From an uncultured cyanobacterium (GTDB lineage Bacteria > Cyanobacteriota > Cyanobacteriia > Cyanobacteriales > CAWUOF01): 64,000 bases of DNA. The stretch lies in NCBI GenBank assembly GCA_963744145.1, contig CAVUSO010000001.1, positions 896,001-960,000 of the forward strand, in the 5' to 3' direction. The position numbers and the translations under genes are program-made. The notes below the pieces were generated by a model, which did no database searches, was not told the DNA's origin, and saw nothing but the letters and a program-made list of their open reading frames with translations. Shown here piece after piece: positions 4,005-37,146 of this stretch (its first letter is position 1; the number at the start of each line of letters is the position of its first letter).

Positions 4005-6548
4005 GTGAATTGGTATAACTTAATGAAAATCGCATATGTCATACGGATGGTATTAATTTTAGTTGCATTAATTCAGGACAGCAAAAATAAGTTCTTATTA
4101 TCAAGCTTGTATCGATTTACTTTATTAGCTATAGGTTTTTATTTGCTTTCCAGTCGAGTTACAGCACAAATTGTCCCTGATAATACTCTTCCTAATAACT
4201 CTATTGTTGGCATTAATGGTCAGAGATTAACTATTAATGGTGGTACAATAGCGGGTAAGAATCTTTTTCATAGTTTCCAAGAATTTTCTATTCCTACAGG
4301 AGAGGAAGCTTTTTTTAACAATGCTAGCAATATTCAAAATATTTTCAGTCGTGTTACGGGTAAAAAAATATCTAATATTGATGGGATAATTAGTTCTAAT
4401 GGAGTTGCAAACTTATTTTTTATTAATCCCAATGGCATAATATTTGGTAATAATACGCAATTAAATACTGGAGGTTCTTTTATTAGTTCAACAGCTAATA
4501 ATATTATATTTAATGATGGCTTTAATTTTAGTGCTATCAATTCACAAATTGTGCCGTTGTTAACAGTTAATATACCGGTTTTTTTACAATTAGAACAAAA
4601 TTCCGGAGCAATTCAAGTAAATGGTGCAGGTCATAATTTTACAGTTGCAGTTCCATTTGGTGCGCCAGTTAACTATAATCAAAACACCAGTAACCTAAAA
4701 GTGAATCCAGGTAAAACACTAGCTTTAGTCGGAAGCAATGTCACGCTTTCTGGTGGCATCTTAACTGCTCAGGGTGGAAGAATAGAGTTAGGTGGTGTTG
4801 CTTTAGGTAAAGTACGTCTCACAAATACTAACTCCGGATGGGTTTTAGACTATAAGCAAGTGCAAAGTTTTGGAGATGTTAACCTATTCCAAAAAGCAGC
4901 ATTAGATGCTAGTGGTTCAATGGGCGGCTCTATCCAAATTGTAGGTAGAAAAGTTACGTTAACTGATGGCTCTCTAGCATTGATTCAAAACCAAGGAAAT
5001 AAACTATCAGGAAACCTCATTGTAAATGCTTCTGAATCTTTAGATTTAACTGGAACTAATCCAGAAGCAACATTCGCTAGTAGTTTGCTGACTGAAACTG
5101 TTGCAAATGGCAAAGGAGGAGACATAGAAATTTCCACTAAAAGCTTATCAATACAAGATGGAGCACGAATAGCTAGTCAAACCTTTAGTAACGCATCTAG
5201 CGGAAATCTGATCATCAATGCCTCAGACTCAACAGATATAGTAGGATTTTCACCTATTAATGTAGAAGTAATGAGTTTTCTCATTGCCTCAACTTTTAGC
5301 ACAGGAAATGCAGGAAATATTACATTGCAAACAAACCAATTGAGAGTATTGAATGGAGGAAGTGTTTCAATTCCTGTTATTGGTACTGGTGCGGGAGGAA
5401 ATATAACTTTAAATGCTTCTCAATTGGTAGAAGTTAATGGAACAATACCGCAAATCTCTCAGCCTTCTTCAATTGGTGGTGCGACAATACCTGGAAAAGG
5501 TGCTAACTTAATTATTAATACATCTAAGGTTTTAGTGGAATCTGGAGGAGTTATTACCACCTCAACTGTCGCAAACGGTTCAGCAGGGGATATTACTATC
5601 AATGCCTCTGATTCCGTACAAGTTAGTGGCAAAGGAGTTGATGGTGGACTTCCATCTAGAATAGAGGCTGCTGCGACCATTGAGGCTGAAGAATTCCGAA
5701 AATTAAGAGGACTACCCGATCGCCCCTCCGGCAACTCCGGCAGCGTCACCATCAATACCCCCCGCCTCACAGTCTCCGATGGCGCTACTGTTAGTGTTGG
5801 AAATCAAGGTACAGGCAACGCAGGCAACCTCAACATCAACGCAGGTTCGATCGCTCTCCTCAACGCCAACCAAGGGATCAGCGCAGCTACGGCATCAGGT
5901 GAAGGTGGCAACCTCAACATCACCACCAACGCCCTCCAACTACGACAAGCCAGCCAAATCTCCACCCAAGCAGGGGGCACAGGTAACGGTGGCAACATCA
6001 CCCTCAACGCCAACACCCTAGCCCTCCTCGAAAACAGTAAAATCAATGCTAACGCCTTCAAAGGTAATGGTGGTAACATCCTCATCAACACCCAAGGCTT
6101 ATTTACCGCTCCCTATACTCCCGATCGCCAAATCACAGCTAGTTCCCAACTAGGAATATCAGGCACGATCGCCATCAATGATCCCACTAATCAGTCTAAC
6201 ATCGGATTCATCCAACTACCGAAAAACCTCCTCGACGCTAGCACGCAAATCAGCCAAACTTGTAATAACGGCAAAGTGAACAGACTCGCCCTCGTCGGTC
6301 GGGGTGGTTTGTCCGAAGATCCATTGAAAGCTTTTCCCAGTGATGACATCTGGCAAGACCACACCAATTATACTAGCCGACTTAATCCAGTGAATCAGAG
6401 CAGAAATCAGGCTCAAGTCACCAAACCAGAACCACCACCCATCATTGAAGCTACGGGTTGGCAAGTCAATCAAAATGGCCAAATTGAATTAATCAGTCAG
6501 GCCCAAGCTGTCCCCCAATTTAACGTCCAACAGTTTCAATGTCACTAA
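4005..6548 (+). CDS. Filamentous haemagglutinin family (TPS-domain) exoprotein; start codon uncertain
   Basis: AQIVPDNTL, NLFHSFQEFS, NPNGIIFG secretion domain, G/N-rich beta-helix repeats, C-terminal IIEATGW motif. Confidence 0.9.
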   Translation: MNWYNLMKIAYVIRMVLILVALIQDSKNKFLLSSLYRFTLLAIGFYLLSSRVTAQIVPDNTLPNNSIVGINGQRLTINGGTIAGKNLFHSFQEFSIPTGEEAFFNNASNIQNIFSRVTGKKISNIDGIISSNGVANLFFINPNGIIFGNNTQLNTGGSFISSTANNIIFNDGFNFSAINSQIVPLLTVNIPVFLQLEQNSGAIQVNGAGHNFTVAVPFGAPVNYNQNTSNLKVNPGKTLALVGSNVTLSGGILTAQGGRIELGGVALGKVRLTNTNSGWVLDYKQVQSFGDVNLFQKAALDASGSMGGSIQIVGRKVTLTDGSLALIQNQGNKLSGNLIVNASESLDLTGTNPEATFASSLLTETVANGKGGDIEISTKSLSIQDGARIASQTFSNASSGNLIINASDSTDIVGFSPINVEVMSFLIASTFSTGNAGNITLQTNQLRVLNGGSVSIPVIGTGAGGNITLNASQLVEVNGTIPQISQPSSIGGATIPGKGANLIINTSKVLVESGGVITTSTVANGSAGDITINASDSVQVSGKGVDGGLPSRIEAAATIEAEEFRKLRGLPDRPSGNSGSVTINTPRLTVSDGATVSVGNQGTGNAGNLNINAGSIALLNANQGISAATASGEGGNLNITTNALQLRQASQISTQAGGTGNGGNITLNANTLALLENSKINANAFKGNGGNILINTQGLFTAPYTPDRQITASSQLGISGTIAINDPTNQSNIGFIQLPKNLLDASTQISQTCNNGKVNRLALVGRGGLSEDPLKAFPSDDIWQDHTNYTSRLNPVNQSRNQAQVTKPEPPPIIEATGWQVNQNGQIELISQAQAVPQFNVQQFQCH

Positions 6549-6614
6549 CAAATCACCCATCCGATCGCGATTCACAAATGTGGGAGAAACTGGGAGTGCG
6601 ATCGGCTGAAATAG

Positions 6615-6669
6615 TTGCGTAAAGAGGTAGCGATCGACTAAAATGCCTGCTCCTCAAGTAGAGCAGCAT
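6615..6669 (+). promoter_or_regulatory. Putative sigma70 promoter with an overlapping palindrome, repeated before every Rpn copy
   Basis: TTGCGT-18bp-TAAAAT followed by CTGCTC-N8-GAGCAG, just before the ATG. Confidence 0.5.
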
Positions 6670-6674
6670 GAATC

Positions 6675-7565
6675 ATGTCCATTGATAACCTATGTAAACT
6701 CATCGCCGAAAAATATCCAGCTGCTTTTGCCACTTGGATTTTAGGTGAATCGCAGCCGAGCGTACAAGTCTTAAAAACCGAACTGAGTATCGAACCAATT
6801 CGAGCCGATTCCGTGATCTTGCTGGAAACCACAGACCGGATCTTACATCTAGAATTCCAGGTGAGACTAGAATCAGAGCCACCATTACCATTAAGAATGC
6901 TAGATTATTGGGTCAGGCTATATCGGTTATACCGCAAACCAATCATCCAAGTCATAATTTTATTACTACCACCCAGGGAAGGAACAGTAATTGAAACGGC
7001 ATTTGTGTTCGGAACAACTTACCATGAGTATCGGGTAATTCGACTGTGGGAAGAAGACCCAAAGATATTTCTGTCTGATCTAGCGTTACTACCCTTAGCA
7101 GCATTAACCGCCACATCTCAACCAGAACAGTTGCTAGCACAAGTGGCAGAACAAGTGGATAGAATAGAATCAGTTACAGAGCAACAAGAAGTATCCGCAT
7201 ACATCCAAATCTTGGCGGGATTAAAGTTTAATCAACAAATTTTGCATCGATTATTTCAGGAGAATGCCATGCGAGAATCAGTAATTTATCAGGAGATTTT
7301 GCAGGTCGGTCGAGAAGAAGGACGACAAGAAGGACTAATGGAAGGACAACGGTCAGGACGACAAGAAGGACAACAAGAAGGACGTTTGCAGGAACGACGC
7401 TTATTGGTAGAAAATTTGCTGCGGATTCGGTTTGGCTCTTTAGAACCAGAACTGGCTCAGATGATTGAACCAATGATTCAGTTATCAACCGATGAGTTAG
7501 TTCCCTTACTCTATCAATTATCTCAGACTGAACTTTTGGCCAGATTTACTCCCCATCAGAATTAA
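6675..7565 (+). CDS. Rpn family PD-(D/E)XK nuclease / putative transposase, copy 1 (7 VNTR units)
   Basis: TELSIEPIRAD...ILHLEFQ, PLRMLDY, MRESVIYQEI followed by EG-repeat linker. Confidence 0.9.
   Translation: MSIDNLCKLIAEKYPAAFATWILGESQPSVQVLKTELSIEPIRADSVILLETTDRILHLEFQVRLESEPPLPLRMLDYWVRLYRLYRKPIIQVIILLLPPREGTVIETAFVFGTTYHEYRVIRLWEEDPKIFLSDLALLPLAALTATSQPEQLLAQVAEQVDRIESVTEQQEVSAYIQILAGLKFNQQILHRLFQENAMRESVIYQEILQVGREEGRQEGLMEGQRSGRQEGQQEGRLQERRLLVENLLRIRFGSLEPELAQMIEPMIQLSTDELVPLLYQLSQTELLARFTPHQN
7269..7565 (+). CDS. Predicted in-frame internally initiated small C-terminal protein (RpnS-like, 98 aa); equivalent starts at 8707, 9923, 11063, 12266
   Basis: AGGAG at 7258-7262, then 6 nt, then ATG (Met199); conserved in all five copies. 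Confidence 0.6.
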   Translation: MRESVIYQEILQVGREEGRQEGLMEGQRSGRQEGQQEGRLQERRLLVENLLRIRFGSLEPELAQMIEPMIQLSTDELVPLLYQLSQTELLARFTPHQN

Positions 7566-7806
7566 GCCAATTTCTCCCCTGGCGATCGGTCAACCTGGCC
7601 AAATTTCCGGTTTAATCAAGCCACCGGAGCGATCGCCAAATCCCTGTCACTAAAAACTTACCCATCCGATCACCCTAGACTCGAACTAGGAGGCGATCGC
7701 GATTCACAAATATGGGAGAACCTGGGAGCGCGATCGGCTGAAATAGTTGCGTAAAACCGTAGCGATCGACTAAAATGCCTGCTCCTCAAGTAGAGCAGCA
7801 TGAATC

Positions 7807-7995
7807 ATGTCCATTGATAACCTATGTAAACTCATCGCCGAAAAATATCCAGCTGCTTTTGCCACTTGGATTTTAGGTGAATCGCAGCCGAGCGTGCAAG
7901 TTTTAAAAACCGAACTGAGTATCGAACCAATCCGAGCCGATTCCGTGATCTTGCTGGAAACCACAGACCATCCGATCACCCTAGACTCGAACTAG
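7807..7995 (+). pseudogene. Truncated Rpn copy produced by a 306-bp local duplication
   Basis: First about 54 codons match Rpn, then the sequence jumps back to the spacer (CCATCCGATCACCCTAG). Confidence 0.9.
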
Positions 7996-8112
7996 GAGGC
8001 GATCGCGATTCACAAATATGGGAGAACCTGGGAGCGCGATCGGCTGAAATAGTTGCGTAAAACCGTAGCGATCGACTAAAATGCCTGCTCCTCAAGTAGA
8101 GCAGCATGAATC

Positions 8113-9087
8113 ATGTCCATTGATAACCTATGTAAACTCATCGCCGAAAAATATCCAGCTGCTTTTGCCACTTGGATTTTAGGTGAATCGCAGCCGAGCG
8201 TGCAAGTTTTAAAAACCGAACTGAGTATCGAACCAATCCGAGCCGATTCCGTGATCTTGCTGGAAACCACAGACCGGATCTTACATCTAGAATTCCAGGT
8301 GAGACTAGAATCAGAGCCACCATTACCATTAAGAATGCTAGACTACTGGGTCAGGCTATATCGGTTATACCGCAAACCAATCATCCAAGTCATAATTTTA
8401 TTACTACCACCCAGGGAAGGAACAGTAATAGAAACGGCATTTGTGTTCGGAACAACTTACCATGAGTATCGGGTAATTCGACTGTGGGAAGAAGACCCAA
8501 AGATATTTCTGTCTGATCTAGCGTTACTACCCTTAGCAGTATTAACCACCACATCTCAACCAGAACAGTTGCTAGCACAAGTGGCAGAACAAGTGGATAG
8601 AATAGAATCAGTTACAGAGCAACGAGAAGTATCCGCATACATCCAAATCTTGGCGGGATTAAAGTTTAATCAACAAATTTTGCATCGATTATTTCAGGAG
8701 AATGCCATGCGAGAATCAGTAATTTATCAGGAGATTTTGCAGGTCGGTCGAGAAGAAGGACGACTTGAAGGACGACAAGAAGGACAACGATCAGGACGAC
8801 TTGAAGGACGACTTGAAGGACGACTTGAAGGACGACTTGAAGGACGACTTGAAGGACGACTTGAAGGACGACTTGAAGGACGACTTGAAGGACGACTTGA
8901 AGGACGTTTGCAGGAACGACGCTTATTGGTAGAAAATTTGCTGCGGATTCGGTTTGGCTCTTTAGAACCAGAACTGGCTCAGATGATTGAACCAATGATT
9001 CAGTTATCAACCGATGAGTTAGTTCCCTTACTCTATCAATTATCTCAGACTGAACTTTTGGCCAGATTTACTCCCCATCAGAATTAA
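8113..9087 (+). CDS. Rpn family nuclease, copy 2 (14 VNTR units)
   Basis: Near-identical to copy 1; includes (GRLE)9. Confidence 0.9.
   Translation: MSIDNLCKLIAEKYPAAFATWILGESQPSVQVLKTELSIEPIRADSVILLETTDRILHLEFQVRLESEPPLPLRMLDYWVRLYRLYRKPIIQVIILLLPPREGTVIETAFVFGTTYHEYRVIRLWEEDPKIFLSDLALLPLAVLTTTSQPEQLLAQVAEQVDRIESVTEQREVSAYIQILAGLKFNQQILHRLFQENAMRESVIYQEILQVGREEGRLEGRQEGQRSGRLEGRLEGRLEGRLEGRLEGRLEGRLEGRLEGRLEGRLQERRLLVENLLRIRFGSLEPELAQMIEPMIQLSTDELVPLLYQLSQTELLARFTPHQN
8746..8913 (+). repeat. 12-bp coding VNTR (GGACGACTTGAA and variants); other copies at 7308-7391, 9962-10081, 11102-11257, 12305-12376
   Basis: Read directly from the sequence; unit counts 7/14/10/13/6 account for protein lengths 296/324/308/320/292. 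Confidence 0.95.
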
Positions 9088-9328
9088 GCCAATTTCCCCC
9101 CTGGCGATCGGTCAACCTGGCCAAATTTCCGGTTTAATCAAGCCACCGGAGTGATCGCCAAATCCCTGTCACTAACAACTTACCCATCCGATCGCCCTAG
9201 ACTCGAACTAGGAGGCGATCGCGATTCACAAAAGTGGGGAAAACTGGGAGCGCGATCGGCTGAAATAGTTGCGTAAAGAGGTAGCGATCGACTAAAATGC
9301 CTGCTCCTCAAGTAGAGCAGCATGAATC

Positions 9329-10255
9329 ATGTCCATTGATAACCTATGTAAACTCATCGCCGAAAAATATCCAGCTGCTTTTGCCACTTGGATTTTAGGT
9401 GAATCGCAGCCGAGCGTACAAGTCTTAAAAACCGAACTGAGTATCGAACCAATTCGAGCCGATTCCGTGATCTTGCTGGAAACCACAGACCGGATCTTAC
9501 ATCTAGAATTCCAGGTGAGACTAGAATCAGAGCCACCATTACCATTAAGAATGCTAGATTATTGGGTCAGGCTATATCGGTTATACCGCAAACCAATCAT
9601 CCAAGTCATAATTTTATTACTACCACCCAGGGAAGGAACAGTAATTGAAACGGCATTTGTGTTCGGAACAACTTACCATGAGTATCGGGTAATTCGACTG
9701 TGGGAAGAAGACCCGAAGATATTTCTGTCTGATCTAGCGTTACTACCCTTAGCAGCATTAACCGCCACATCTCAACCAGAACAGTTGCTAGCACAAGTGG
9801 CAGAACAAGTGGATAGAATAGAATCAGTTACAGAGCAGCGAGAAGTATCCGCATACATCCAAATCTTGGCGGGATTAAAGTTTAATCAACAAATTTTGCA
9901 TCGATTATTTCAGGAGAATGCCATGCGAGAATCAGTAATTTATCAGGAGATTTTGCAGGTCGGTCGAGCAGAAGGACGACAAGAAGGACTAATGGAAGGA
10001 CAACGGTCAGGACGACAAGAAGGACGACTTGAAGGACGACTTGAAGGACGACAAGAAGGACAACAAGAAGGACGTTTGCAGGAACGACGCTTATTGGTAG
10101 AAAATTTGCTGCGGATTCGGTTTGGCTCTTTAGAACCAGAACTGGCTCAGATGATTGAACCAATGATTCAGTTATCAACCGATGAGTTAGTTCCCTTACT
10201 CTATCAATTATCTCAGACTGAACTTTTGGCCAGATTTACTCCCCATCAGAATTAA
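9329..10255 (+). CDS. Rpn family nuclease, copy 3 (10 VNTR units)
   Basis: Near-identical to copy 1. Confidence 0.9.
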   Translation: MSIDNLCKLIAEKYPAAFATWILGESQPSVQVLKTELSIEPIRADSVILLETTDRILHLEFQVRLESEPPLPLRMLDYWVRLYRLYRKPIIQVIILLLPPREGTVIETAFVFGTTYHEYRVIRLWEEDPKIFLSDLALLPLAALTATSQPEQLLAQVAEQVDRIESVTEQREVSAYIQILAGLKFNQQILHRLFQENAMRESVIYQEILQVGRAEGRQEGLMEGQRSGRQEGRLEGRLEGRQEGQQEGRLQERRLLVENLLRIRFGSLEPELAQMIEPMIQLSTDELVPLLYQLSQTELLARFTPHQN

Positions 10256-10468
10256 GCCAATTTCCCCCCTGGCGATCAGTCAACCTGGCCAAATTTCCGG
10301 TTTAATCAAGCCAAGGAGCGATCGCCAAATCCCTGTCACTAACAACTCACCCATCCGATCGCGATTCACAAATATGGGAGAACCTGGGAGCGCGATCGGC
10401 TGAAATAGTTGCGTAAAGAGGTAGCGATCGACTAAAATGCCTGCTCCTCAAGTAGAGCAGCATGAATC

Positions 10469-11431
10469 ATGTCCATTGATAACCTATGTAAACTCATCGC
10501 CGAAAAATATCCAGCTGCTTTTGCCACTTGGATTTTAGGTGAATCGCAGCCGAGCGTGCAAGTTTTAAAAACCGAACTGAGTATCGAACCAATCCGAGCC
10601 GATTCCGTGATCTTGCTGGAAACCACAGACCGGATCTTACATCTAGAATTCCAGGTGAGACTAGAATCCGAGCCACCATTACCATTAAGAATGCTAGACT
10701 ATTGGGTCAGGCTATATCGGTTATACCGCAAACCAATCATCCAAGTCATAATTTTATTACTACCACCCAGAGAAGGAACAGTAATAGAAACGGCATTTGT
10801 GTTCGGAACAACTTACCATGAGTATCGGGTAATTCGACTGTGGGAAGAAGACCCAAAGATATTTCTGTCTGATCTAGCGTTACTACCCTTAGCAGCATTA
10901 ACCGCCACATCTCAACCAGAACAGTTGCTAGCACAAGTGGCAGAACAAGTGGATAGAATAGAATCAGTTACAGAGCAGCGAGAAGTATCCGCATACATCC
11001 AAATCTTGGCGGGATTAAAGTTTAATCAACAAATTTTGCATCGATTATTTCAGGAGAATGCCATGCGAGAATCAGTAATTTATCAGGAGATTTTGCAGGT
11101 CGGTCGAGAAGAAGGACGACAAGAAGGACTACTGGAAGGACAACGGTCAGGACGACTTGAAGGACAACAAGAAGGACGACTTGAAGGACGACTTGAAGGA
11201 CTACTGGAAGGACAACGGTCAGGACGACAAGAAGGACAACAAGAAGGACGTTTGCAGGAACGACGCTTATTGGTAGAAAATTTGCTGCGGATTCGGTTTG
11301 GCTCTTTAGAACCAGAACTCGCTCAGATGATTGAACCAATGATTCAGTTATCAACCGATGAGTTAGTTCCCTTACTCTATCAATTATCTCAGACTGAACT
11401 TTTGGCCAGATTTACTCCCCATCAGAATTAA
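10469..11431 (+). CDS. Rpn family nuclease, copy 4 (13 VNTR units)
   Basis: Near-identical to copy 1. Confidence 0.9.
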   Translation: MSIDNLCKLIAEKYPAAFATWILGESQPSVQVLKTELSIEPIRADSVILLETTDRILHLEFQVRLESEPPLPLRMLDYWVRLYRLYRKPIIQVIILLLPPREGTVIETAFVFGTTYHEYRVIRLWEEDPKIFLSDLALLPLAALTATSQPEQLLAQVAEQVDRIESVTEQREVSAYIQILAGLKFNQQILHRLFQENAMRESVIYQEILQVGREEGRQEGLLEGQRSGRLEGQQEGRLEGRLEGLLEGQRSGRQEGQQEGRLQERRLLVENLLRIRFGSLEPELAQMIEPMIQLSTDELVPLLYQLSQTELLARFTPHQN

Positions 11432-11671
11432 GCCAATTTCCCCCCTGGCGATCAGTCAACCTGGCCAAATTTCCGGTTTAATCAAGCCAAGGAGCGATCG
11501 CCAAATCCCTGTCACTAACAACTCACCCATCCGATCGCCCTAGACTCGAACTAGGAGGCGATCGCGATTCACAAATATGGGAGAACCTGGGAGCGCGATC
11601 GGCTGAAATAGTTGCGTAAAACCGTAGCGATCGACTAAAATGCCTGCTCCTCAAGTAGAGCAGCATGAATC

Positions 11672-12550
11672 ATGTCCATTGATAACCTATGTAAACTCAT
11701 CGCCGAAAAATATCCAGCTGCTTTTGCCACTTGGATTTTAGGTGAATCGCAGCCGAGCGTGCAAGTTTTAAAAACCGAACTGAGTATCGAACCAATCCGA
11801 GCCGATTCCGTGATCTTGCTGGAAACCACAGACCGGATCTTACATCTAGAATTCCAGGTGAGACTAGAATCCGAGCCACCATTACCATTAAGAATGCTAG
11901 ACTACTGGGTCAGGCTATATCGGTTATACCGCAAACCAATCATCCAAGTCATAATTTTATTACTACCACCCAGAGAAGGAACAGTAATAGAAACGGCATT
12001 TGTGTTCGGAACAACTTACCATGAGTATCGGGTAATTCGACTGTGGGAAGAAGACCCAAAGATATTTCTGTCTGATCTAGCACTACTACCCTTAGCAGCA
12101 TTAAGCGCCACATCTCAACCAGAACAGTTGCTAGCACAAGTGGCACAACGAGTGGATAGAATAGAATCAGTTACAGAGCAGCGAGAAGTATCCGCATATA
12201 TCCAAATCTTGGCGGGATTAAAGTTTAATCAACAAATTTTGCATCGATTATTTCAGGAGAATGCCATGCGAGAATCAGTAATTTATCAGGAGATTTTGCA
12301 GGTCGGTCGAGCAGAAGGACGACAAGAAGGACTACTGGAAGGACAACGGTCAGGACAACAAGAAGGACGTTTGCAGGAACGACGCTTATTGGTAGAGAAT
12401 TTGCTGCGGATTCGGTTTGGCTCTTTAGAACCAGAACTGGCTCAGATGATTGAACCAATGATTCAGTTATCAACCGATGAGTTAGTTCCCTTACTCTATC
12501 AATTATCTCAGACTGAACTTTTGGCCAGATTTACTCCCCATCATAATTAA
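11672..12550 (+). CDS. Rpn family nuclease, copy 5 (6 VNTR units)
   Basis: Near-identical to copy 1; ends PHHN. Confidence 0.9.
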   Translation: MSIDNLCKLIAEKYPAAFATWILGESQPSVQVLKTELSIEPIRADSVILLETTDRILHLEFQVRLESEPPLPLRMLDYWVRLYRLYRKPIIQVIILLLPPREGTVIETAFVFGTTYHEYRVIRLWEEDPKIFLSDLALLPLAALSATSQPEQLLAQVAQRVDRIESVTEQREVSAYIQILAGLKFNQQILHRLFQENAMRESVIYQEILQVGRAEGRQEGLLEGQRSGQQEGRLQERRLLVENLLRIRFGSLEPELAQMIEPMIQLSTDELVPLLYQLSQTELLARFTPHHN

Positions 12551-12577
12551 GCCAATTTCCCCCCTGGCGATCGGTCA

Positions 12578-12961
12578 TTATGCTATTAACTCAATTGCTT
12601 CTTTTAAAACTTGATGAATGGTAGGTCTCTGGGTCGCAATCACGTCATTAGGTAAGTGCTTATGGTGTGGAAAATTAGGCAAATTTGGAAAATGAGGTGT
12701 ACTATCGTAGCGAAAAATAAGTTGATTTTGTTCGTTCTGAAAATGATAGCGGTAATCGAGAAATTTTAATTGATTGTCTACTACTAGGATCGCTTCATTA
12801 ATTTCTAATAGATGGGTCTGATTAAAACGCAATCTAATTCTGAGATTAGCCCGCTTTAGCTCTAAAATTTCTTCCTCATAGTGTTCAACATCAACATTGC
12901 TACATCGTTGAATTACCTGCTCAATTTGATCTAAATAATCAGATAAAATATTAAGCAGCAT
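12578..12961 (-). CDS. DUF6516 family (TumE-like) putative toxin
   Basis: YRYHFQ...LIFRYDSTPHFP...FPHHKH signature. Confidence 0.75.
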   Translation of the reverse strand: MLLNILSDYLDQIEQVIQRCSNVDVEHYEEEILELKRANLRIRLRFNQTHLLEINEAILVVDNQLKFLDYRYHFQNEQNQLIFRYDSTPHFPNLPNFPHHKHLPNDVIATQRPTIHQVLKEAIELIA

Positions 12962-13182
12962 AATTCAATCGCTGCGCTAGTTCCTGATGCAAAGCCAGAT
13001 AATGTCGATAGTCATTTGCCCATTCTATAAATAGGACATCATCGGCTAATAATCCCTGATTATATTTGGTCAAGAATTCTGCTGAGTCCATTTTTGCCTG
13101 GTTCTCATACAAACTGAGTCTTTTAGCGACTGCAACTAAGGCTGTCTAATGGTGATGTATATTTAATCGTCTTTTTACGCAT
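12951..13182 (-). pseudogene. Putative cognate antitoxin (TumA-like, 76 aa) with a +1 frameshift near 13143; absent from the ORF track
   Basis: Removing one base gives MRKKTIKYTSPLDALVAVAKRLSLYENQAKMDSAEF...FIEWANDYRHYLALHQEL...YAA*; its stop overlaps the toxin start (ATGCTGCTTAA). Confidence 0.7.
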
Positions 13183-31585: not shown

Positions 31586-33631
31586 TCATCGGACAGAGGT
31601 TAATTTAGGTTGATTACGTGGATGACTATACTCTTGAGAAAGTACCCATTCACGAATAAATCGAGCTAGGGTTTTTTGTGCTAAACCACCAGCAACTTTT
31701 TGTCCCATGCGTTGAACTTCTGGTTTTCCTAATAATTGAGGGATTAACGATAGAATCTCCATCGGTTCAAAACCAGGAGTTTCTTGCAAAATTCCCCAAA
31801 TTCTTTGTAAGTGTTCTAAGTTTTGCCGATCGCTAACAATGATTGGGGGTTCATTTATTTTGACTCCCAACCATTCATTAACTGTTGTCCTGGCATTTTT
31901 TAAAGCATTTTGCCAAGCATTTTGCGACCAGATATCTAAATTTTTCACAATTTCATCTACTAAATAATCGCGAATAAAATCACCGCGTTCCGAGAATAAA
32001 TACTCTATCCCTTGATCTAATACCTTGCTAATATCATAATTATCACTAACACGAGCATTTCTCAGTAAATTTTCTAACCGATTCCAGCGAAAACTGCCAT
32101 CTTTAAACAATAAATCTCGTAAAGACGATCGCAATTCTGGAGCTGGATCGGTTAATAATCGTTTCGCGACGTAAGGATAAGCTTTACTCAGCACTTTGAA
32201 ATTGGGATCGACTTTAATCGCAATTCCTTCTAATGTTACCAGTGAACGAATAATTAAAGCGTAATAAGCGGGCACCCGGAAGGGATACTCATACATTAAA
32301 ACTGAGAACTGATCAGTAATGCTTTTAAAATTAAGTTCAGCTACACTAGCACCTAAAGCATTACCAAAAACCCGGGTCAAAGCCGGAATTATGGGTGTTA
32401 AATCAGTATCTGGTGTTAAAAACTCTAACTTGATATAATCTTGAGCTAATGCTTCAAAATCTCGGTTAACTAAATGAACAACTGCTTCAATTAAACCATA
32501 GCGTTGATAGGGTTTGACCTCGCTCATCATCCCAAAGTCTAGGTATGCTAATTGACCATCACGAGTAGCTAATAGGTTACCTGGATGAGGATCAGCATGA
32601 AAAAATCCATGTTCTAGGAGTTGACGGAGGGAACACTGTACACCGACTTCAATTAAATAAGTAGGATCGATACCTTGAGCTTGAAGTTCGGCAATTTTAG
32701 TTAATTTAGTACCCTCAATCCATTCCATGGTTAACACCCGTTTTCGGGTATATTCCCAATAAATTTTGGGCACGTAAATATCTTTTATATTACCATATAA
32801 ATCCGCAAATCTTTCGGCATTCCGCCCTTCTTGATTGTAGTCCATTTCTTCAAAAATGCGACTACCAAATTCATCCATAATTCCCACTAAATCACTGCGA
32901 ATTCGTTTAATATTAGTTTTTGCCCAAAACGCTAATCGACGTAGTAGGTAAATATCCAGAGCAATACTTTCCGCTAATCCTGGACGTTGCACTTTGACCG
33001 CAACAATTTCACCTGTTGGTAGTTTCCCCTGATAAACTTGTCCTAGAGATGCTGCTGCAACTGGATCGGTGGAAAGTTCAGCATAGATATTTTCTGGTCG
33101 ATCACCTAATTCTTCTTCAATAAATTTATATGCTAATTCGTTGGGAAATGGTGGTAGTTGATCTTGTAATTTGGCTAATTCTTCTAAATATAATGGTGGT
33201 ACTAGGTCAGGTCGAGTTGATAAAGCTTGACCGACTTTAATAAAAGCTGGACCTAATTTAGTTAATATTTCGCGGAGTTTTACGGCTCGAATTGGTTGAT
33301 TTTCCTCTAATTTACCAGTTCGGCGATCGCATAATAGACTAAAATAAAAGCTCACTAATGGCCAAATAACCCCAACTAATCGCATCCATACCTGAATTGG
33401 TCGCTGGTTATAATAAGCAGCGATCGCTTCTGGATCATAACGTAACGGTTCAGTTGCTGATGGTTCGGCTGATTTTAACCTAGGTGGTATTTCTGAGTAG
33501 GGATCGAGAGCAACTAAATGGGGGGTTTTTACGCTGATGCTGGGATCTAGTTGTTCAGTCTGGGTAAACTTTTCAGCTCTTACCCCCGATTCTAAATATT
33601 TTGACCCTGCTGATCCTGTCTTAACTTTCAT
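31586..33631 (-). CDS. ABC1/AarF/UbiB family atypical kinase
   Basis: IKVGQALSTRPD, AAASLGQVY, VAVKVQRP, HADPHPGN, DFGM. Confidence 0.93.
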   Translation of the reverse strand: MKVKTGSAGSKYLESGVRAEKFTQTEQLDPSISVKTPHLVALDPYSEIPPRLKSAEPSATEPLRYDPEAIAAYYNQRPIQVWMRLVGVIWPLVSFYFSLLCDRRTGKLEENQPIRAVKLREILTKLGPAFIKVGQALSTRPDLVPPLYLEELAKLQDQLPPFPNELAYKFIEEELGDRPENIYAELSTDPVAAASLGQVYQGKLPTGEIVAVKVQRPGLAESIALDIYLLRRLAFWAKTNIKRIRSDLVGIMDEFGSRIFEEMDYNQEGRNAERFADLYGNIKDIYVPKIYWEYTRKRVLTMEWIEGTKLTKIAELQAQGIDPTYLIEVGVQCSLRQLLEHGFFHADPHPGNLLATRDGQLAYLDFGMMSEVKPYQRYGLIEAVVHLVNRDFEALAQDYIKLEFLTPDTDLTPIIPALTRVFGNALGASVAELNFKSITDQFSVLMYEYPFRVPAYYALIIRSLVTLEGIAIKVDPNFKVLSKAYPYVAKRLLTDPAPELRSSLRDLLFKDGSFRWNRLENLLRNARVSDNYDISKVLDQGIEYLFSERGDFIRDYLVDEIVKNLDIWSQNAWQNALKNARTTVNEWLGVKINEPPIIVSDRQNLEHLQRIWGILQETPGFEPMEILSLIPQLLGKPEVQRMGQKVAGGLAQKTLARFIREWVLSQEYSHPRNQPKLTSVR

Positions 33632-33714
33632 CGTGTGGGCACGCCATAATGAGAGGTTACTTAAAATATTGTAACAATTATTTGGTGCGATCGGTCAAAA
33701 TTAATCTCAACCTC

Positions 33715-34461
33715 TCAATTCCATTGCCAACAGCTCAATTGCCAGTTTTTTCCAGCGATCGCGATGGCGGCTGTATAATCTGGATGGGGATTTAAGCTTG
33801 CTAGAGTCCACTCCCTAGCTGCGATCGGATTGTGAGCGGTGCTTAACAGGATAGCTGGTTCGTTGGGATTGACAGATACTTCAAATTGATTTAAAGGTAG
33901 AGTCAGACCTTTACCTGTGGCTTTAATATAGGCTTCTTTACGAGTCCAGCAATTAAAAAAGGCAACTGGTTGTTGGTGATGGGGTAATTTTTGAATAGCT
34001 AAATACTCTGATGCAGAAAAAAAACGCTTGGCTAACTGTTCTAAATCAGATATAGGACGCATATATTCAATATCAATACCAATTTCCCGGTTTTGAGCGA
34101 TCGCATATAAGGCTAAATAATTGGCATGAGATACATTAAAATATAATTTTGGGATAGTGGGATGAGCTAACATGGGTTTTCCATAAGGACCATAGGCAAA
34201 TTGCACATCTTCCGGTTTTATTCCCAAATATTGTCCTAAAATGATTCTTAAGGTTCCCCTAGCCGTAATAAAACGCCATTGATCCCGCTGAAAATAAAAT
34301 CGGTTTGCTCTTTTTTGTTCATCCTCAGCTAGGAGGGTACGAAGTTGTTGAATTTGGTCGAAATCTTGGTCGAGAGAAGCACACCAAACATGGACATCAG
34401 GACTGACTAAATCGAATTTTTCTGGTTTTTGTTGCCACAAACAATTAAATTTAGTCATCAT
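33715..34461 (-). CDS. Sfp-type 4'-phosphopantetheinyl transferase (HetI-like)
   Basis: YGKP, FNVSH, IGIDIE, WTRKEAYIKATGKG. Confidence 0.93.
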   Translation of the reverse strand: MMTKFNCLWQQKPEKFDLVSPDVHVWCASLDQDFDQIQQLRTLLAEDEQKRANRFYFQRDQWRFITARGTLRIILGQYLGIKPEDVQFAYGPYGKPMLAHPTIPKLYFNVSHANYLALYAIAQNREIGIDIEYMRPISDLEQLAKRFFSASEYLAIQKLPHHQQPVAFFNCWTRKEAYIKATGKGLTLPLNQFEVSVNPNEPAILLSTAHNPIAAREWTLASLNPHPDYTAAIAIAGKNWQLSCWQWN

Positions 34462-34569
34462 TGATTAATTTTAGATATAGATTGAAGTTTTAACCGTGAT
34501 CGGCCAGATATAACATAGTATAATGTGTAGGGACGTATGACAATACGCCCCAGAGACATCCAGATGAGG

Positions 34570-34818
34570 TTAATCAGATTTGAGTCTTTGAGCAATCCAG
34601 CTCGAGATCCCACTGAAAATTGCACCTACCATTAACAAACCAATAGCTGGGGTGAAAACTGGCTCCCACAGACGATACCATAGATCCAGACCCAGACTGA
34701 CATGAATCGAACGACCAAAAACTGCGATCGCTAACCAGATAAAGCTAATCAACACCAGGAATACATCCGCGACTAAAAACAGATTTAACCATTGCAGGAG
34801 TTTATCTTTCATTACCAA
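34570..34818 (-). CDS. Small conserved membrane protein
   Basis: Two hydrophobic helices; LGLDLWYRLWEPVF. Confidence 0.7.
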   Translation of the reverse strand: MVMKDKLLQWLNLFLVADVFLVLISFIWLAIAVFGRSIHVSLGLDLWYRLWEPVFTPAIGLLMVGAIFSGISSWIAQRLKSD

Positions 34819-35009
34819 AAATTAATTTTATTACCAATCTATTCAAATTTTATTTTACACTCTGATCATAAACATCAAGGTCATTACTCAAACTAACCGT
34901 GGTCATGGACAACCCTAACTGACCCATTATCCCTAATCAATATCGCTCAAATTTTTGAGAATTAGTTATTATTAGGGTGATTTAACTTCATAACCTGAAC
35001 GATCTACCA

Positions 35010-35609
35010 ATGTCAAAACTCAAATCAATTTATCAACTTGTCGCTACTACCTCGTTATTATTAGGGATCGGAATTTTGGGTAGAGAAGTTGCACAAGCAG
35101 AATCCTCGGTCTTTCTCACTGATAACACCTGTGTGAACACGAGTGGGGGTAATTGGGGGGTGGATAACTCCCCAGTTGTTGTCAATAAAGCAGTATATAC
35201 CAGTTTTTTATTTATGGGGGCTGGTAATACTGTGTCCTCAATGACCTGTTACATTAAACCAGAAAAGCCTCAGAAACATCCCAAGATATTTAAAAGCTTT
35301 TATTTGGAATTTGGGATGCGTGACAATGATCGAGGTAGTCCTTCAAATATTGTCAAAGTTTATTTAGATGGGATACTATCTGCGACACAAAGAGTTTCCC
35401 CCGGTCAAGCATTTTATTTCCCATTTGACGTTTCTAATGTTAGCAATATTTCGATCGAAACTATCTGTGATGGTCAATTACAATATTGCGATCGCGTTTA
35501 CTTTTTTAATGCTTCCTTAGACGAGCGACCATTACCAATTAGCGCACCAACCCTACCATCCTTAACTCCGAATCAAATTCAAACACCACCTCCTCCTCCA
35601 AACCAATAA
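35010..35609 (+). CDS. Secreted hypothetical protein, possible NPCBM-like carbohydrate-binding fold, Pro-rich tail
   Basis: Signal peptide ending AQA; FGMRD...KVYLDG pattern. Confidence 0.6.
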   Translation: MSKLKSIYQLVATTSLLLGIGILGREVAQAESSVFLTDNTCVNTSGGNWGVDNSPVVVNKAVYTSFLFMGAGNTVSSMTCYIKPEKPQKHPKIFKSFYLEFGMRDNDRGSPSNIVKVYLDGILSATQRVSPGQAFYFPFDVSNVSNISIETICDGQLQYCDRVYFFNASLDERPLPISAPTLPSLTPNQIQTPPPPPNQ

Positions 35610-35669
35610 ATGAGATCCGGGCTAATAGTTGTTTAATTAACTATTAGCCAGAAATTAGTAGCCGAAATT

Positions 35670-36065
35670 ATGAAACCACAAATCACCAATATGATCGCAT
35701 GGCAACAGGCTGAAATTCTCATGCAGCCTGCCCTAATTCGTCTGATTGATAATATTCGTAAACAGCTAGAAACCTCAGCATGGAAAGGTAGTTATGAAGA
35801 AGTGCAAACTCCTTATCCCGGCTATCATTTGTGTTTACAATATCAAGATCAGCAAGTGCGAGTTAATTTGTGGGAAATCTGTTATCAAATATGTTTTCGC
35901 AACTATATTCCAGCTATAGAAGAGGAAGGGATACAAGAAGTAGAAATAGATCCCAGTTTGATTAATGAAATGGCAGAAGTAGATTGGCAATCCTTAGAAG
36001 ATAAGACTAAACAAATTGTAGAACATCTATTTGCTAGTTTACCTGGCACCGACAAATATCTTTAA
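35670..36065 (+). CDS. Conserved cyanobacterial hypothetical protein
   Basis: LMQPALIRLIDNIRKQLE, LWEICYQICF. Confidence 0.7.
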   Translation: MKPQITNMIAWQQAEILMQPALIRLIDNIRKQLETSAWKGSYEEVQTPYPGYHLCLQYQDQQVRVNLWEICYQICFRNYIPAIEEEGIQEVEIDPSLINEMAEVDWQSLEDKTKQIVEHLFASLPGTDKYL

Positions 36066-36081
36066 AAAAGTAGGTAACAAA

Positions 36082-37128
36082 ATGAATCAAGAATTACATC
36101 AGATCCAAACTATTGCAGGCGCAATTTTCGCGGAAAATAACTTAGTACCAGTTAGTTTTTGTCAGGATGAAATGGCAATTGAAGCCACCAAAATTGGAGT
36201 TGCACTATGCGATCGCAGTCATTGGGGTCGGATTCAAGTTAGCGATCGCGATCGCATCCGTTTTTTGCATAACCAGAGTACCAATGATTTTAATATTCTG
36301 CAACCAGGACAGGGATGTGATACAGTTTTTGTTACCTCTACTGCACGAGTAATTGATTTAGCAACAGCTTATATTACAGAGAATGATGTAATCCTGTTAG
36401 TTTCTCCAAATCGACGGGAAAAACTAATGCAATGGTTGGATCGTTATATCTTTTTTGCTGATCAAGTAAAATTAGTAGACCTCACTGAAAAAACTATTAC
36501 ATTTAGTTTAATCGGACCGAAAAGTAATGCTATTTTAGAGCAGTTAGGTGCGATCGCAATCACCACCCAACCCCAGAGTAATCACCAAATATTTTTATTA
36601 GATCATCAACCAGTTAGAGTTGCAGTTGGGAGTGGATTAGTTACCCCAGGATATACCTTAATTGCAGATGCTAATCATGCTGTGTCCTTATGGAAAACCT
36701 TAACTGAAGCAGGAGCAATTCCTTTAGGTGATCGGGTTTGGGAACAACTCCGAATTGCTCAAGGAAGACCAGTACCTGATCAGGAACTAACGGAAGATTA
36801 TAACCCCCTGGAAGCAGGTTTATGGCAAACAATTTCCTTTAATAAAGGTTGTTATATCGGACAGGAAACTATTGCTCGATTAAATACCTATAAAGGTGTA
36901 AAAACCCAACTCTGGGGAATTCACCTCGAAGCACCAGTCACACCAGGAACTGTAGTGACAATCGATGAAGAAAAGGTAGGAAAATTAACCAGTTGTACTG
37001 AAACTGCACAAGGTTATTATGGATTAGGATATATTCGCACTAAAGTAGGTGGTGCTGGTTTAAAAGTAAAAGTGGGAGAGATCATGGGAGAAGTAGTTGA
37101 TGTTCCCTTTCTAACTCATGTCCCTTAA
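36082..37128 (+). CDS. ygfZ: Folate-binding Fe-S maturation protein YgfZ (GcvT family)
   Basis: KGCYIGQE signature; start taken at MNQEL. Confidence 0.9.
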   Translation: MNQELHQIQTIAGAIFAENNLVPVSFCQDEMAIEATKIGVALCDRSHWGRIQVSDRDRIRFLHNQSTNDFNILQPGQGCDTVFVTSTARVIDLATAYITENDVILLVSPNRREKLMQWLDRYIFFADQVKLVDLTEKTITFSLIGPKSNAILEQLGAIAITTQPQSNHQIFLLDHQPVRVAVGSGLVTPGYTLIADANHAVSLWKTLTEAGAIPLGDRVWEQLRIAQGRPVPDQELTEDYNPLEAGLWQTISFNKGCYIGQETIARLNTYKGVKTQLWGIHLEAPVTPGTVVTIDEEKVGKLTSCTETAQGYYGLGYIRTKVGGAGLKVKVGEIMGEVVDVPFLTHVP

Positions 37129-37146
37129 TCCTCGGTTGAAATTAAT

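Follow-up and report, generated by a model that had tools for sequence, protein, structure and literature searches.

What does the number of short repeats mean in a gene which has been multiplied several times over, when the copies differ in little else? The question is raised by a row of Rpn-type nuclease genes in a window of 64,000 nucleotides from a cyanobacterial genome (by the window we mean the whole stretch of DNA that was analysed). Our answer is that the locus comprises five intact nuclease genes and a 306-bp stump, each intact copy probably being a gene-within-a-gene toxin-antitoxin module. Repeat number would then gain a meaning, because the repeats sit in the region which is predicted to be translated again as the short antitoxin.

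Anatomy and origin of the array

The five intact open reading frames of the array, all on the + strand, encode 296, 324, 308, 320 and 292 aa in the ORF listing of the window: A1 at 6675..7565, A2 at 8113..9087, A3 at 9329..10255, A4 at 10469..11431 and A5 at 11672..12550. They are 97-99% identical to A1 with every gap confined to the linker, an identity which, over 0.9-kb genes, is beyond chance; the five head-to-tail copies which the sequence-only reading had described are thus borne out. Tandem Repeats Finder reports period-12 arrays in all five. Parsing the tracts codon by codon, we counted 7 tetrapeptide units of 12 bp each in A1 (7308-7391), 14 in A2 (8746-8913), 10 in A3 (9962-10081), 13 in A4 (11102-11257) and 6 in A5 (12305-12376), of the types GREE/GRAE, GRQE, GRLE, GQQE, GLME/GLLE, GQRS and GRLQ, in exact agreement with the counts and types read earlier. 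The divergence of the copies lies almost wholly in the number and order of these units. The tract of A2 contains nine consecutive identical GGACGACTTGAA units, a run typical of slippage, and that of A4 an internal block duplication.

The earlier description of a five-unit array holds for the intact copies and overlooked a sixth, truncated unit (7662..7967, + strand), which comprises the upstream region together with codons 1-54 of the gene and is an exact 306-bp duplicate (7662-7967 = 7968-8273). Its ORF (7807-7995) reaches a stop after 8 foreign residues, and a short homology, CC/ATCCGATC, marks where the partial unit is joined. We counted six occurrences of the unit's 5' 300 nt, at spacings of 1132, 306, 1216, 1140 and 1203 nt.

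The array is the product of direct duplication of a unit of about 1.15-1.2 kb. We concluded that tandem duplication took place, and no repeated insertion, because the 5' and 3' flanks and one type of junction are common to all units; the units have neither inverted ends nor target-site duplications. The 3' flank of A5 ends 26 nt past its stop. The dispersed copies of the same genome (B, C and D) have ragged ends; a whole TPS gene stands upstream of B, and just 69-nt TPS remnants upstream of C and D. Tandem duplication is also how rpn arrays are reported to form (PMC10400941). The array of Parabacteroides sp. Marseille is likewise head-to-tail and ascribed to tandem direct duplication, not transposition, and has no target-site duplications according to the legend of Fig. 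S1 (panel B for the arrangement) in the supplement of that paper. The legend does not state whether those copies differ in repeat number; in our array all five do, and so do the copies within the two further arrays or clusters of the same genome.

A probable Rpn-type nuclease with a predicted internal start

The array proteins are assigned to the Rpn family on the following grounds. The match to the NCBIfam model TIGR01784 (Rpn family) has an E value of 6e-13 and 49.2 bits, and all array copies score 40-50 bits, under the cut-off of 52.1; the Pfam search returned no nuclease-domain match for them (PF04754 and PF12784 included), and DUF4351 reaches 17-21 bits against a Pfam cut-off of 25. The nearest named homologues, called Rpn family or DUF4351 proteins at NCBI, are 66-67% identical over the full alignment and 75-81% over the best BLASTP segment. 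Two paralogues in the same genome (G and H), 40-46% identical by tblastn, attain 91-115 bits with TIGR01784, above the curated cut-off. Residues D4, D45, E60 and Q62 are invariant in all 56 aligned homologues and form the same D...D...ExQ pattern as D11, D63, E82 and Q84 of RpnA, where D11A, D63A, E82A and Q84K abolish activity (PMC5350276). The AF2 model of the full-length protein has a pLDDT of 83. Its residues 1-127 best match structures which we class as nucleases of the restriction-endonuclease fold, with middling Z values of 5-6.9 (in the best match 105 residues align, at Z 6.9 and an rmsd of 3.8 A). Weak matches to FliH and Yae1_N come from the Gly-x-x-x-Gly periodicity of the linker. 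The GxxxG repeats of FliH/YscL are four-residue helical repeats whose number tunes a distance or a helix-helix contact; these proteins are unrelated to ours, and the likeness is an analogy only.

According to Zhong et al. (2023, PMC10400941), rpn genes are genes-within-genes with two products: RpnL, the long form, is a nuclease toxin, and RpnS, the short form made from inside the gene, is its antitoxin. The sequence-only reading overlooked this mechanism. The array copies show the corresponding signals. In all five, an AGGAG stands 6 nt 5' of an invariant ATG (Met199) on the + strand: at 7258-7262 and 7269 in A1, where the predicted short protein has 98 aa, at 8696-8700 and 8707 in A2, at 9912-9916 and 9923 in A3, at 11052-11056 and 11063 in A4, and at 12255-12259 and 12266 in A5. 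The upstream region of A1 (6549..6674, + strand) is without a Shine-Dalgarno motif for the full-length start; it contains a hairpin with a 6-bp stem, CTGCTC-N8-GAGCAG (6647-6666), which ends 8 nt 5' of the ATG. Met199 is invariant in 56/56 aligned homologues. An AGGAG, GGGAG or AAGGAG precedes the internal Met by 6-7 nt in all 12 paralogues of the genome, and two of its subfamilies keep such an upstream motif despite encoding different residues there. Every one of the 76 scoreable foreign cyanobacterial copies has a Shine-Dalgarno core at -16..-4 of the internal Met, and just 3 of these 76 have one at the full-length start. At codons -4..-2, Glu is written GAG in 71/83 cases (501/2130 in the remainder of these genes), and CGG or AGG stands for Arg in 61/66 cases (321/1560 in the remainder). 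The putative internal ribosome site is, on this codon evidence, held by codon choice family-wide. The repeats start 13 residues past Met199 in all array copies and in 76/76 homologues, and the window given for E. coli is 8-20 residues (PMC10400941). It is likely, as judged from these signals, that each array copy also makes a small antidote protein from the internal start.

The repeats fall in a single predicted helix (residues 203-253 in the full model, 2-51 in the short one), which is continuous and the length of which scales with unit number. The short protein is modelled as three helices, 2-51, 56-66 and 70-82. Modelled as a homodimer, that of A5 obtains a score of 0.63, and the best of 3 controls one of 0.01; among proteins of solved structure, 20 of 30 one-chain pairs and 1 of 23 single chains attain that mark. 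At least 96% of contacts are common to the runs, with a partner pLDDT of at least 82, and the closest contacts (14:14, 18:18, 22:22, 26:26, 30:30 and 34:34) join the repeat glycines along helix 1. The model is that of a parallel, in-register dimer; its good score may stem from a resemblance to helical dimers of solved structure, and the model covers the pairing of short protein with short protein only.

The resemblance to RpnA-E of E. coli and to the plasmid protein RpnP2, as these are described in PMC10400941 and PMC5350276, extends over the whole architecture: an N-terminal PD-(D/E)XK core with D...D...ExQ, an internal ribosome site followed by a Met, four-residue repeats (one hydrophobic residue with charged ones or Gly) that lie in the long helix 1, and, at the C-terminal end, a small domain of helices, the repeat number varying while the remainder is constant. 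RpnA(S) itself (PDB 7TH0) is a three-helix unit which dimerises via helix 1. The short-protein model did not retrieve 7TH0 in Foldseek, VIA-align or HMM and sequence searches, so that the link to E. coli RpnS is one of architecture only. The cyanobacterial subfamily differs by scoring below the TIGR01784 cut-off, by having no match to PF04754 or PF12784 and by its diverged DUF4351 C-terminal domain. Furthermore, the variation is found here among paralogues of one genome, and in E. coli among strains.

The same genome carries a second, five-copy Rpn array, a textbook member of the cyanobacterial proteins with PDDEXK_2 (PF12784) and DUF4351 (PF14261) which are annotated 'Rpn family recombination-promoting nuclease/putative transposase' (166 bits for PDDEXK_2, 65 bits for DUF4351). 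The linker and C-terminal module are common to both arrays (hhalign probability 98%), while hhalign gave no alignment between their N-terminal domains: the C-terminal module appears to have been exchanged among different nuclease heads. An internal start is uncertain in this second array, because the motif before the candidate Met directly abuts the ATG without spacing.

Repeat number and the proposed insulation of paralogues

By analogy with the E. coli work, the full-length, RpnL-like protein would be a toxic PD-(D/E)XK DNA endonuclease. The RpnS-like protein from Met199 (94-126 aa), predicted to comprise a long helix of Gly-x-x-Glu repeats and a small DUF4351-type helical domain, would bind the matching region of the long protein and block the toxin. 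In the model the two repeat helices would pair parallel and in register, glycine to glycine, at about 6 A per unit; given such pairing, a partner of another unit number would have its N-terminal segments or its C-terminal domains out of register. Slippage or unequal crossing-over alters the long and short forms together, because both are read from one DNA, and each paralogue would therefore retain its own antidote. A paralogue of changed length would likely escape neutralisation by the antidotes of its neighbours, and the array would amount to five insulated nuclease/antidote pairs, a number which would rise to seven if B and C, both dispersed, were included.

Much of this is in print. The four-residue repeats of rpn vary in number (PMC10400941), RpnC(L) is blocked only by an RpnS of matching repeat number (Fig. 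4D of the same paper), and two points were left open by the E. coli work, the way in which the dodecamer repeats grow and shrink and the reason for their varying number. In the commentary 'Antitoxins within toxins', repeat variation was proposed to insulate co-resident copies (PMC10400984); in the passages of the commentary which bear on it this is a conjecture without an example, whereas near-identical paralogues differing essentially in the tract are present here. Since the variable repeats, their role in matching toxin to antitoxin, tandem arrays of rpn and the notion of insulation are all described in the portions of these two papers that concern them, a high novelty of the array is unwarranted: the locus illustrates well a type of toxin-antitoxin already in the literature, not a new system. 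It provides a ready-made test set for the insulation of paralogues by repeat number, as conjectured in the commentary, and single steps of repeat change are recorded in the seven near-identical paralogues (the five of the array and two dispersed ones), which makes the locus material on both points left open in E. coli. The codon-level signal would extend the gene-within-a-gene model to the cyanobacteria, a phylum that goes unmentioned in the consulted sections of PMC10400941, and suggests a function for DUF4351.

The seven copies of this subfamily (the five of the array and two dispersed ones) have 7, 14, 10, 13, 6, 4 and 17 units, all different. The second array has repeat numbers 4, 7, 3 and 6, a three-copy Rpn cluster of the same genome has 1, 4 and 3 eight-residue units, and in other genomes the two copies of a same-locus pair differ in 7 of 7 scoreable cases. 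One may tentatively go further, and we regard the following only as possible: Rpn arrays would be libraries of toxin-antitoxin pairs, barcoded by length and insulated from one another, where a new copy is kept only after its tract has changed, in length or in the hydrophobic/polar pattern of the third positions, so that each nuclease would answer solely to its own antidote. Three unrelated Rpn lineages of the genome (5+2, 4 and 3 copies), none alike within a lineage, would have come to this independently. If it were true, a cell would hold many separately triggerable nucleases, and the Pfam domain DUF4351 would be the part of cyanobacterial Rpn systems that serves as antitoxin and for dimerisation. 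When values are drawn from the counts of the 76 foreign copies, five values are all distinct with a frequency of 8%, and all of seven pairs are unequal with one of 22%. All-different repeat numbers are therefore no proof of selection: fast slippage alone would suffice.

This lack of significance under a simple null suits a neutral amplification, that is, a selfish or tolerated nuclease gene multiplied by unequal recombination, with repeat numbers set by slippage and devoid of functional meaning. Genes of this genome tend to be amplified in tandem, as is seen from its TPS paralogues, about 40 in number and several of them so arranged, and from two further Rpn clusters; the genome contains decayed members of the family (two frameshifted, one 5'-truncated, and the stump), and the array lies outside any defence island. 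We nevertheless find this account unlikely. All seven full copies have open frames, with a synonymous divergence of up to 7% inside the array; pN/pS of the non-repeat sequence is 0.00-0.26 in all 21 pairs, and codons 1-140 of the five array copies have 11 synonymous and 0 non-synonymous variable sites. Judged by these substitutions, the non-repeat sequence is under purifying selection. Among the seven copies length changes only by whole multiples of 12 bp, the first and last units being kept, and a three-unit insertion separates two otherwise matching paralogues. The family-wide codon choice before the internal Met also speaks against neutrality, as does the effect of repeat number on toxin-antitoxin matching in E. 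coli (PMC10400941).

The linker might instead act as a spacer: the nuclease head would be kept at a given distance from a DNA-binding C-terminal helical domain, and the paralogues would differ in target geometry, not in the matching of antidotes. The modelled continuous helix would serve such a purpose. Zhong et al. cite the parallel of EcoR124I and EcoR124II, where the number of TAEL repeats sets the gap in the recognition site, and they relate RpnS to helix-turn-helix motifs by HHpred (PMC10400941, discussion for the former); Kingston et al. (2017) suggest that DNA preference might depend on the variable tail (PMC5350276). The EcoR124I/EcoR124II specificity subunits also have in-frame four-residue helix repeats, but they are unrelated to our proteins and offer an analogy only. 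A spacer leaves the codon-conserved internal start unexplained, and as a full explanation we think it improbable; it is compatible with antidote matching.

That the array is an artefact, in which strain variants of one gene were strung together by the assembler or a smaller array was over-expanded, is very improbable. The sole sequencing run in which this DNA occurs comes from a metagenome and consists of short contigs, and the exact 306-bp duplicate could look suspect. However, a 92-nt contig bridges the head-to-tail junction at about 7644 without a mismatch (45 + 47 nt on either side), and a mismatch-free contig of 58 nt nearly does so at the stump junction 7967/7968, its flanks of 28 + 30 nt falling just under the 31 nt of our junction-crossing rule; this run may come from the same sample as the assembly of the window. 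The copies are also mosaics, with linked differences across flanks, coding sequence and repeat tract, the 7.63 Mb contig is free of N, and two other loci of the genome have the same architecture. The usual assembly error for such repeats is collapse, and over-expansion would run counter to it.

Genomic neighbourhood

We return to the toxin-antitoxin reading with the surroundings of the array. It had been proposed that this may be an expanding and contracting defence locus diversifying one helical segment. The PD-(D/E)XK array, the constancy of the catalytic part and the way in which 12-bp units are added, lost and reshuffled in frame stand; the defence role stays conjectural. The neighbours are mostly housekeeping genes, with one TumE/TumA-like pair as the sole defence-like neighbour. 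A PADLOC-DB search with the array protein gave no match, and no relatives were found in phage records.

Upstream lies a gene for a TPS-domain (two-partner-secretion) exoprotein (4005..6548, + strand; Pfam PF05860, 209 bits). Its 3' end recurs 5' of the dispersed copies B, C and D, and a TPS match near an rpn gene was found at 0 of 79 foreign loci. Because its final 90 nt or so are part of the ancestral duplicated unit, we regard this gene as context and not as a functional partner.

Finally we must note that the array is adjoined by a TumE-like toxin gene (12578-12961, - strand; NCBIfam NF045777, 197 bits; Pfam PF20126) and a gene for a TumA-like small partner (12951-13112, - strand; PADLOC PDC-M44A, 87 bits). 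Together they match the PADLOC candidate system PDC-M44 (PDC-M44B, 208 bits), and we take them (12578..13112) for a separate toxin-antitoxin or candidate defence pair.

Five putative nuclease genes and their probable family

The sequence-only reading had placed five intact head-to-tail Rpn nuclease genes within 6540-12577, and five intact ORFs are indeed read there on the + strand: A1 (6675-7565, 296 aa), A2 (8113-9087, 324 aa), A3 (9329-10255, 308 aa), A4 (10469-11431, 320 aa) and A5 (11672-12550, 292 aa). Its description of nearly invariant ends around a variable linker with a 12-bp repeat stands as well: the proteins are 97-99% identical to A1, alignment gaps are confined to one segment, Tandem Repeats Finder detects a period of 12 in all five copies, and a codon-by-codon parse gives back, from A1 to A5, the 7, 14, 10, 13 and 6 units of the tetrapeptide types which it had listed. 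The antisense ORFs lying over the repeats (e.g. 8666-9010) were taken as mechanical by-products of the repeat, nothing being found in their support.

The array protein matches the NCBIfam model TIGR01784 (Rpn family recombination-promoting nuclease/putative transposase) with an E-value of 6e-13 and 49.2 bits, under the cut-off of 52.1 which paralogues of the same genome, 40-46% identical to it (tblastn), exceed; a control search with this model was positive in E. coli too. The sole Pfam match is a weak DUF4351 at the C-terminus. Cyanobacterial relatives are numerous (4,059 proteins with E <= 1e-5 among the 7,998 candidates scored), the nearest ones bear the NCBI names Rpn family or DUF4351, and the closest foreign protein reaches 70-75% identity across its best BLASTP segment. 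Of 201 genomes sampled from the class, 94 have the family, and so do 40 plasmid records of cyanobacteria.

In the full-length AlphaFold2 model (pLDDT 83), residues 1-127 form an alpha/beta core, the best structural match of which is NucS, with a middling Z of 6.9 (rmsd 3.8 A over 105 residues). Further matches of the core include VC1899, Can2, Card1, SdaI, McrC and FokI, all of which, like NucS, we take to be nucleases of the restriction-endonuclease fold; Foldseek with the full-length model gave no match at E <= 0.001. Residues D4, D45, E60 and Q62 do not vary among 56 aligned homologues, and they correspond to D11, D63 and E82-x-Q84 of E. coli RpnA, a set whose mutation abolishes activity according to PMC5350276.

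A candidate gene within each gene

In E. coli, according to the main text of Zhong et al. (PMC10400941), rpn genes encode a full-length toxic endonuclease, RpnL, and also a short C-terminal protein, RpnS, which is made from an internal start, binds the toxin and inhibits it. Repeats of four residues start 8-20 residues past the RpnS methionine, within its long first helix; their number differs from strain to strain, and RpnC(L) is blocked solely by RpnS of equal repeat number. The same layout, an internal start followed by four-residue repeats, can be read in the sequence of the array genes.

The candidate internal start, Met199, is found in all 56 aligned homologues, and AGGAG stands 6 nt upstream of its ATG in all five array copies. 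The subfamilies which are 40-46% identical to the array retain AAGGAG at this place though the encoded residues change (LLRRE or LLRSD against LFQEN). We then scored a foreign sample of 79 loci and 86 copies, that is, the 76 copies having the Met motif, ten truncated or divergent ones being left out. A Shine-Dalgarno (SD) core is present at -16..-4 of the internal Met in 76 of 76 copies, against 3 of 76 at the full-length start, and its spacing is 5 nt in 65 of the 74 copies with GGAG or GAGG. At codons -4..-2, glutamate is written GAG in 71 of 83 cases (501 of 2,130 in the rest of the same genes) and arginine is written CGG or AGG in 61 of 66 (321 of 1,560), counts which come from related sequences, so that Fisher p-values exaggerate the strength of the bias. 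On this comparative evidence, the putative internal ribosome site is constrained at the level of nucleotides and not of protein. The repeat begins 13 residues past the internal Met in every copy, array and foreign, and the predicted short proteins have 94-126 aa.

At the full-length start there is no SD motif, and a small hairpin precedes it. This hairpin, CTGCTC-N8-GAGCAG (6647-6666 before A1), is conserved before every copy and ends 8 nt from the full-length ATG; it may keep translation of the long form low. A full-length start of this kind would favour a surplus of the short form, and an excess of the short form has been measured in E. coli (PMC10400941, main text). A sigma-70 scan gave 13 sites where 12.4 were expected; GTGGCA-16-TAGAAT, found about 100 nt upstream of every internal ATG, does not rise above chance, and all terminator-like hairpins lie on the - strand.

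Residues 203-253 form a single helix in the full-length model, and the modelled short protein of A5 (pLDDT 79) consists of a 50-residue helix and then two short helices. Predicted as a homodimer, it scores 0.63, the best of three controls having 0.01. Of proteins solved as same-chain pairs, 20 of 30 come up to the mark of the short protein, and of those solved as single chains 1 of 23 does; this pass could mirror likeness to solved dimers, and it covers the pairing of short with short, not the binding of long to short. Contacts agree at least to 96% between runs, with a partner pLDDT of at least 82. The closest ones join residue i to residue i at positions 14, 18, 22, 26, 30 and 34, which by sequence are the glycines of the Gly-x-x-Glu units. 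In the model, then, two short proteins pair with their helices parallel and in register, glycine packed on glycine. Every added unit would lengthen the helix by about 6 A, and with a partner of unequal unit number the conserved MRESVIYQEIL segment and the C-terminal domain could not both be aligned. From the in-register packing and this step per unit, we infer that repeat lengths would have to match. RpnA(S) is described as a dimer via helix 1 in the main text of PMC10400941. The solved RpnA(S), 7TH0, was not retrieved by the family HMM or the short-protein HMM, which gave only chance matches among PDB sequences, nor by fold, where Foldseek and VIA-align with the short model returned generic long helices.

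Unequal repeat numbers: selection or slippage

We distinguished 18 unit types at the DNA level across seven copies, namely A1-A5 and two dispersed relatives, B (C1:4840979-4841833, - strand) and C (C1:92200). With one letter for each 12-bp type, A1 reads l p d i p g o and A3 reads j p d i p n n p g o, the A1 order plus three inserted units. A5 reads j p b i g o, while A4, l p b i n g n n b i p g o, has the block b i twice; A2 is made of l n p h, nine identical n and a final o. Copy B reads l p m a and copy C has 17 units. Both end units are conserved, and length changes by whole units throughout. Such patterns would be expected of replication slippage and unequal exchange.

Outside the tract, pN/pS is 0.00-0.26 for all 21 pairs of the seven copies, and synonymous divergence within the array is 1-7%. 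Codons 1-140 of the five array copies hold 11 synonymous and no non-synonymous variable sites; six non-synonymous sites all fall within codons 143-171. The non-repeat sequence of the copies is under purifying selection. The low pN/pS together with the synonymous divergence means that the copies are old enough for silent sites to have drifted and that all of them have been maintained.

No two copies have the same repeat number inside any lineage of this genome, and in other genomes co-located copies are unequal in seven of seven scoreable pairs (two further pairs were unscored). Under a simple null in which counts are taken at random from the 76 foreign copies, 8% of draws give five distinct values, so that chance is not rejected; seven distinct values arise in 0.3% of draws, and seven pairs all unequal in 22%. 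Lengths which all differ are compatible with insulation by selection without proving it. Since one DNA encodes both the long and the short form, any change in length compensates itself, and therefore fast neutral slippage would give an identical picture. That selection, and not neutral slippage, made all the lengths different seems to us rather doubtful. Array copies are also unusually long: four of the five have at least 7 units, against 5 of 76 foreign copies.

We think it fairly probable that the array genes are RpnL/RpnS-type modules insulated by linker length. Variable four-residue repeats, the intragenic antitoxin, the need for matching repeat number and tandem arrays of rpn genes are all in print in the main text of PMC10400941, and the conjecture that repeat variation averts in-trans inhibition among co-resident copies is put forward in PMC10400984. 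Our search of the literature on Rpn repeats, Rpn arrays and cyanobacterial DUF4351 found no follow-up beyond the 2017 and 2023 papers and a commentary; in the literature searched we found neither a description of arrayed paralogues differing in repeat number copy by copy nor any paper which treats the cyanobacterial DUF4351 subfamily as RpnL/RpnS genes. The string "cyanobacteri" is absent from the main paper of PMC10400941, the supplementary figures being covered by their legends. The array is a clean, information-rich natural example of a published system, on which the insulation hypothesis is directly testable.

Duplication, neighbours and other Rpn loci

The sequence-only reading had overlooked a sixth unit: 7662-7967 is identical to 7968-8273. 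This stump consists of the upstream region and the first 54 codons (a 62-aa ORF, 7807-7995), and it is joined to the next unit as ...ACAGACC|ATCCGATC... All units have in common about 145 nt 5' of the ATG (172 nt with a 27-nt insert) and about 95 nt 3' of the stop. The dispersed copies have ragged ends, inverted repeats are lacking and a single junction type is common to the array units, which fits an origin by tandem direct duplication with occasional ectopic copying. Direct duplication is likewise concluded for the rpn arrays of Zhong et al. (PMC10400941, section 5 and legend of SI Fig. S1B).

A1 is preceded by the 3' end of a two-partner-secretion (TPS) exoprotein gene (4005-6548, + strand; Pfam TPS, 209 bits), and the same TPS 3' end lies upstream of B, C and a third dispersed relative, D. 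Copy B lies behind a whole 876-aa TPS paralogue (C1:4841987-4844617, - strand), while before C and D (C1:242120) the TPS 3' end is reduced to a 69-nt remnant (C1:92002-92070 and 241922-241990); a second remnant close downstream of C (93282-93365) seems to be what is left of a neighbouring unit since lost. The 3' end of the TPS gene was carried along as the rpn unit was copied around the genome. A functional partnership was ruled out, as no TPS match lies within 6 kb at any of the 79 foreign loci; the adjacency is a local hitch-hike. TPS paralogues number about 40 in this genome, and several of them stand in tandem (e.g. C1:3639764-3649806, 4951320-4963160, 360227-372897 and 32099-39902).

The 27-nt insert, CGATCACCCTAGACTCGAACTAGGAGG, has a 5-bp palindromic stem and is flanked by CGATC repeats at a ACCCATCCGATC site. 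It precedes A2, A3, A5, the stump and B (7667-7693, 7973-7999 and the equivalents before A3 and A5); A1, A4, C and D lack it in their upstream regions. Both the stump junction and the truncation beside copy C fall at this ACCCATCCGATC site, and this coincidence suggests a local hot spot of recombination.

That the array is an artefact of assembly is very improbable. The genome is one 7.63-Mb contig and three small ones, the window being C1:896001-960000 (G+C of the genome 39%; the HIP1 cyanobacterial octamer occurs 7,760 times on the large contig and 7,811 times across all four). The read evidence is one public metagenome run stored as short contigs, maybe from the source sample, which cannot yield copy number, contains a fraction of 0.56 of the sampled words and leaves several bins uncovered, a gap that carries no weight; none of the runs listed as carrying this DNA is an RNA run. 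A 92-nt contig without mismatch bridges the head-to-tail junction near 7644 (45 + 47 nt either side), and a 58-nt contig, also without mismatch, bridges the stump junction (28 + 30 nt, slightly below the 31-nt rule). Furthermore, the differences between copies are linked in a mosaic pattern through flanks, coding sequence and repeat tract, and the same architecture recurs at two other loci of this genome.

A TumE-like toxin gene (197 bits) with a small overlapping partner (12578-13112, - strand; PADLOC candidate system PDC-M44) directly abuts A5, the 3' flank of which is only 26 nt, against about 95 nt in other units. The rest of the genes within about 7 kb are housekeeping ones (signal-peptide peptidase, chorismate mutase, carbonic anhydrase, Tex-like protein, ketoacyl synthase). 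The Rpn protein had no match in PADLOC, and tblastn found no copies or decoys among 50,697 phage records. Given such neighbours and searches, a role in defence would be argued solely by analogy with the E. coli precedent.

Searching the genome with TIGR01784 gave 22 matches. A second five-copy head-to-tail array (C1:4671757-4677387, loci L097-L101; PDDEXK_2 166 bits, DUF4351 65 bits) has DNA units 94-98% identical; its first copy is cut off exactly at the repeat onset, and the remaining four have 4, 7, 3 and 6 glycine-period units. In this array, AGAGGA immediately abuts the ATG of the candidate internal Met, which makes an internal start less certain here. A third cluster (C1:1582119-1590740) holds three Rpn genes with 1, 4 and 3 copies of the eight-residue GIEIGKQQ; its subfamily, 40-46% identical to the array and above the TIGR01784 cut-off, also has a lone gene with GIQQ repeats (C1:3212348-3213148, - strand), and AAGGAG precedes a conserved internal Met in all its genes. 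Among the foreign loci, 9 of 79 have two copies and none has three or more; the 201 genomes of the class likewise show pairs only, among the matches listed (150, with at most 12 candidates per genome scored), many of these assemblies being short-read ones prone to collapse arrays.

The linker and C-terminal module are common to both array families (hhalign probability 98%). A gene at C1:7129459-7130394 (- strand) joins an array-type linker and C-terminal domain (91% identity over the 57-residue domain) to an unrelated N-terminal part, and copy D (C1:242120-242962) joins an array-type nuclease head (84% identical) to a different, canonical DUF4351 tail. From these two genes, the repeat tract seems to serve as a junction for swapping heads and tails. 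Three further members of the subfamily are decayed, two of them frameshifted or interrupted by stops and one 5'-truncated (C1:6523541-6524427, 6731133-6731979 and 3907265-3907864). The truncated copy keeps the internal Met, a four-unit linker and the DUF4351 tail, and could be an orphan antidote gene.
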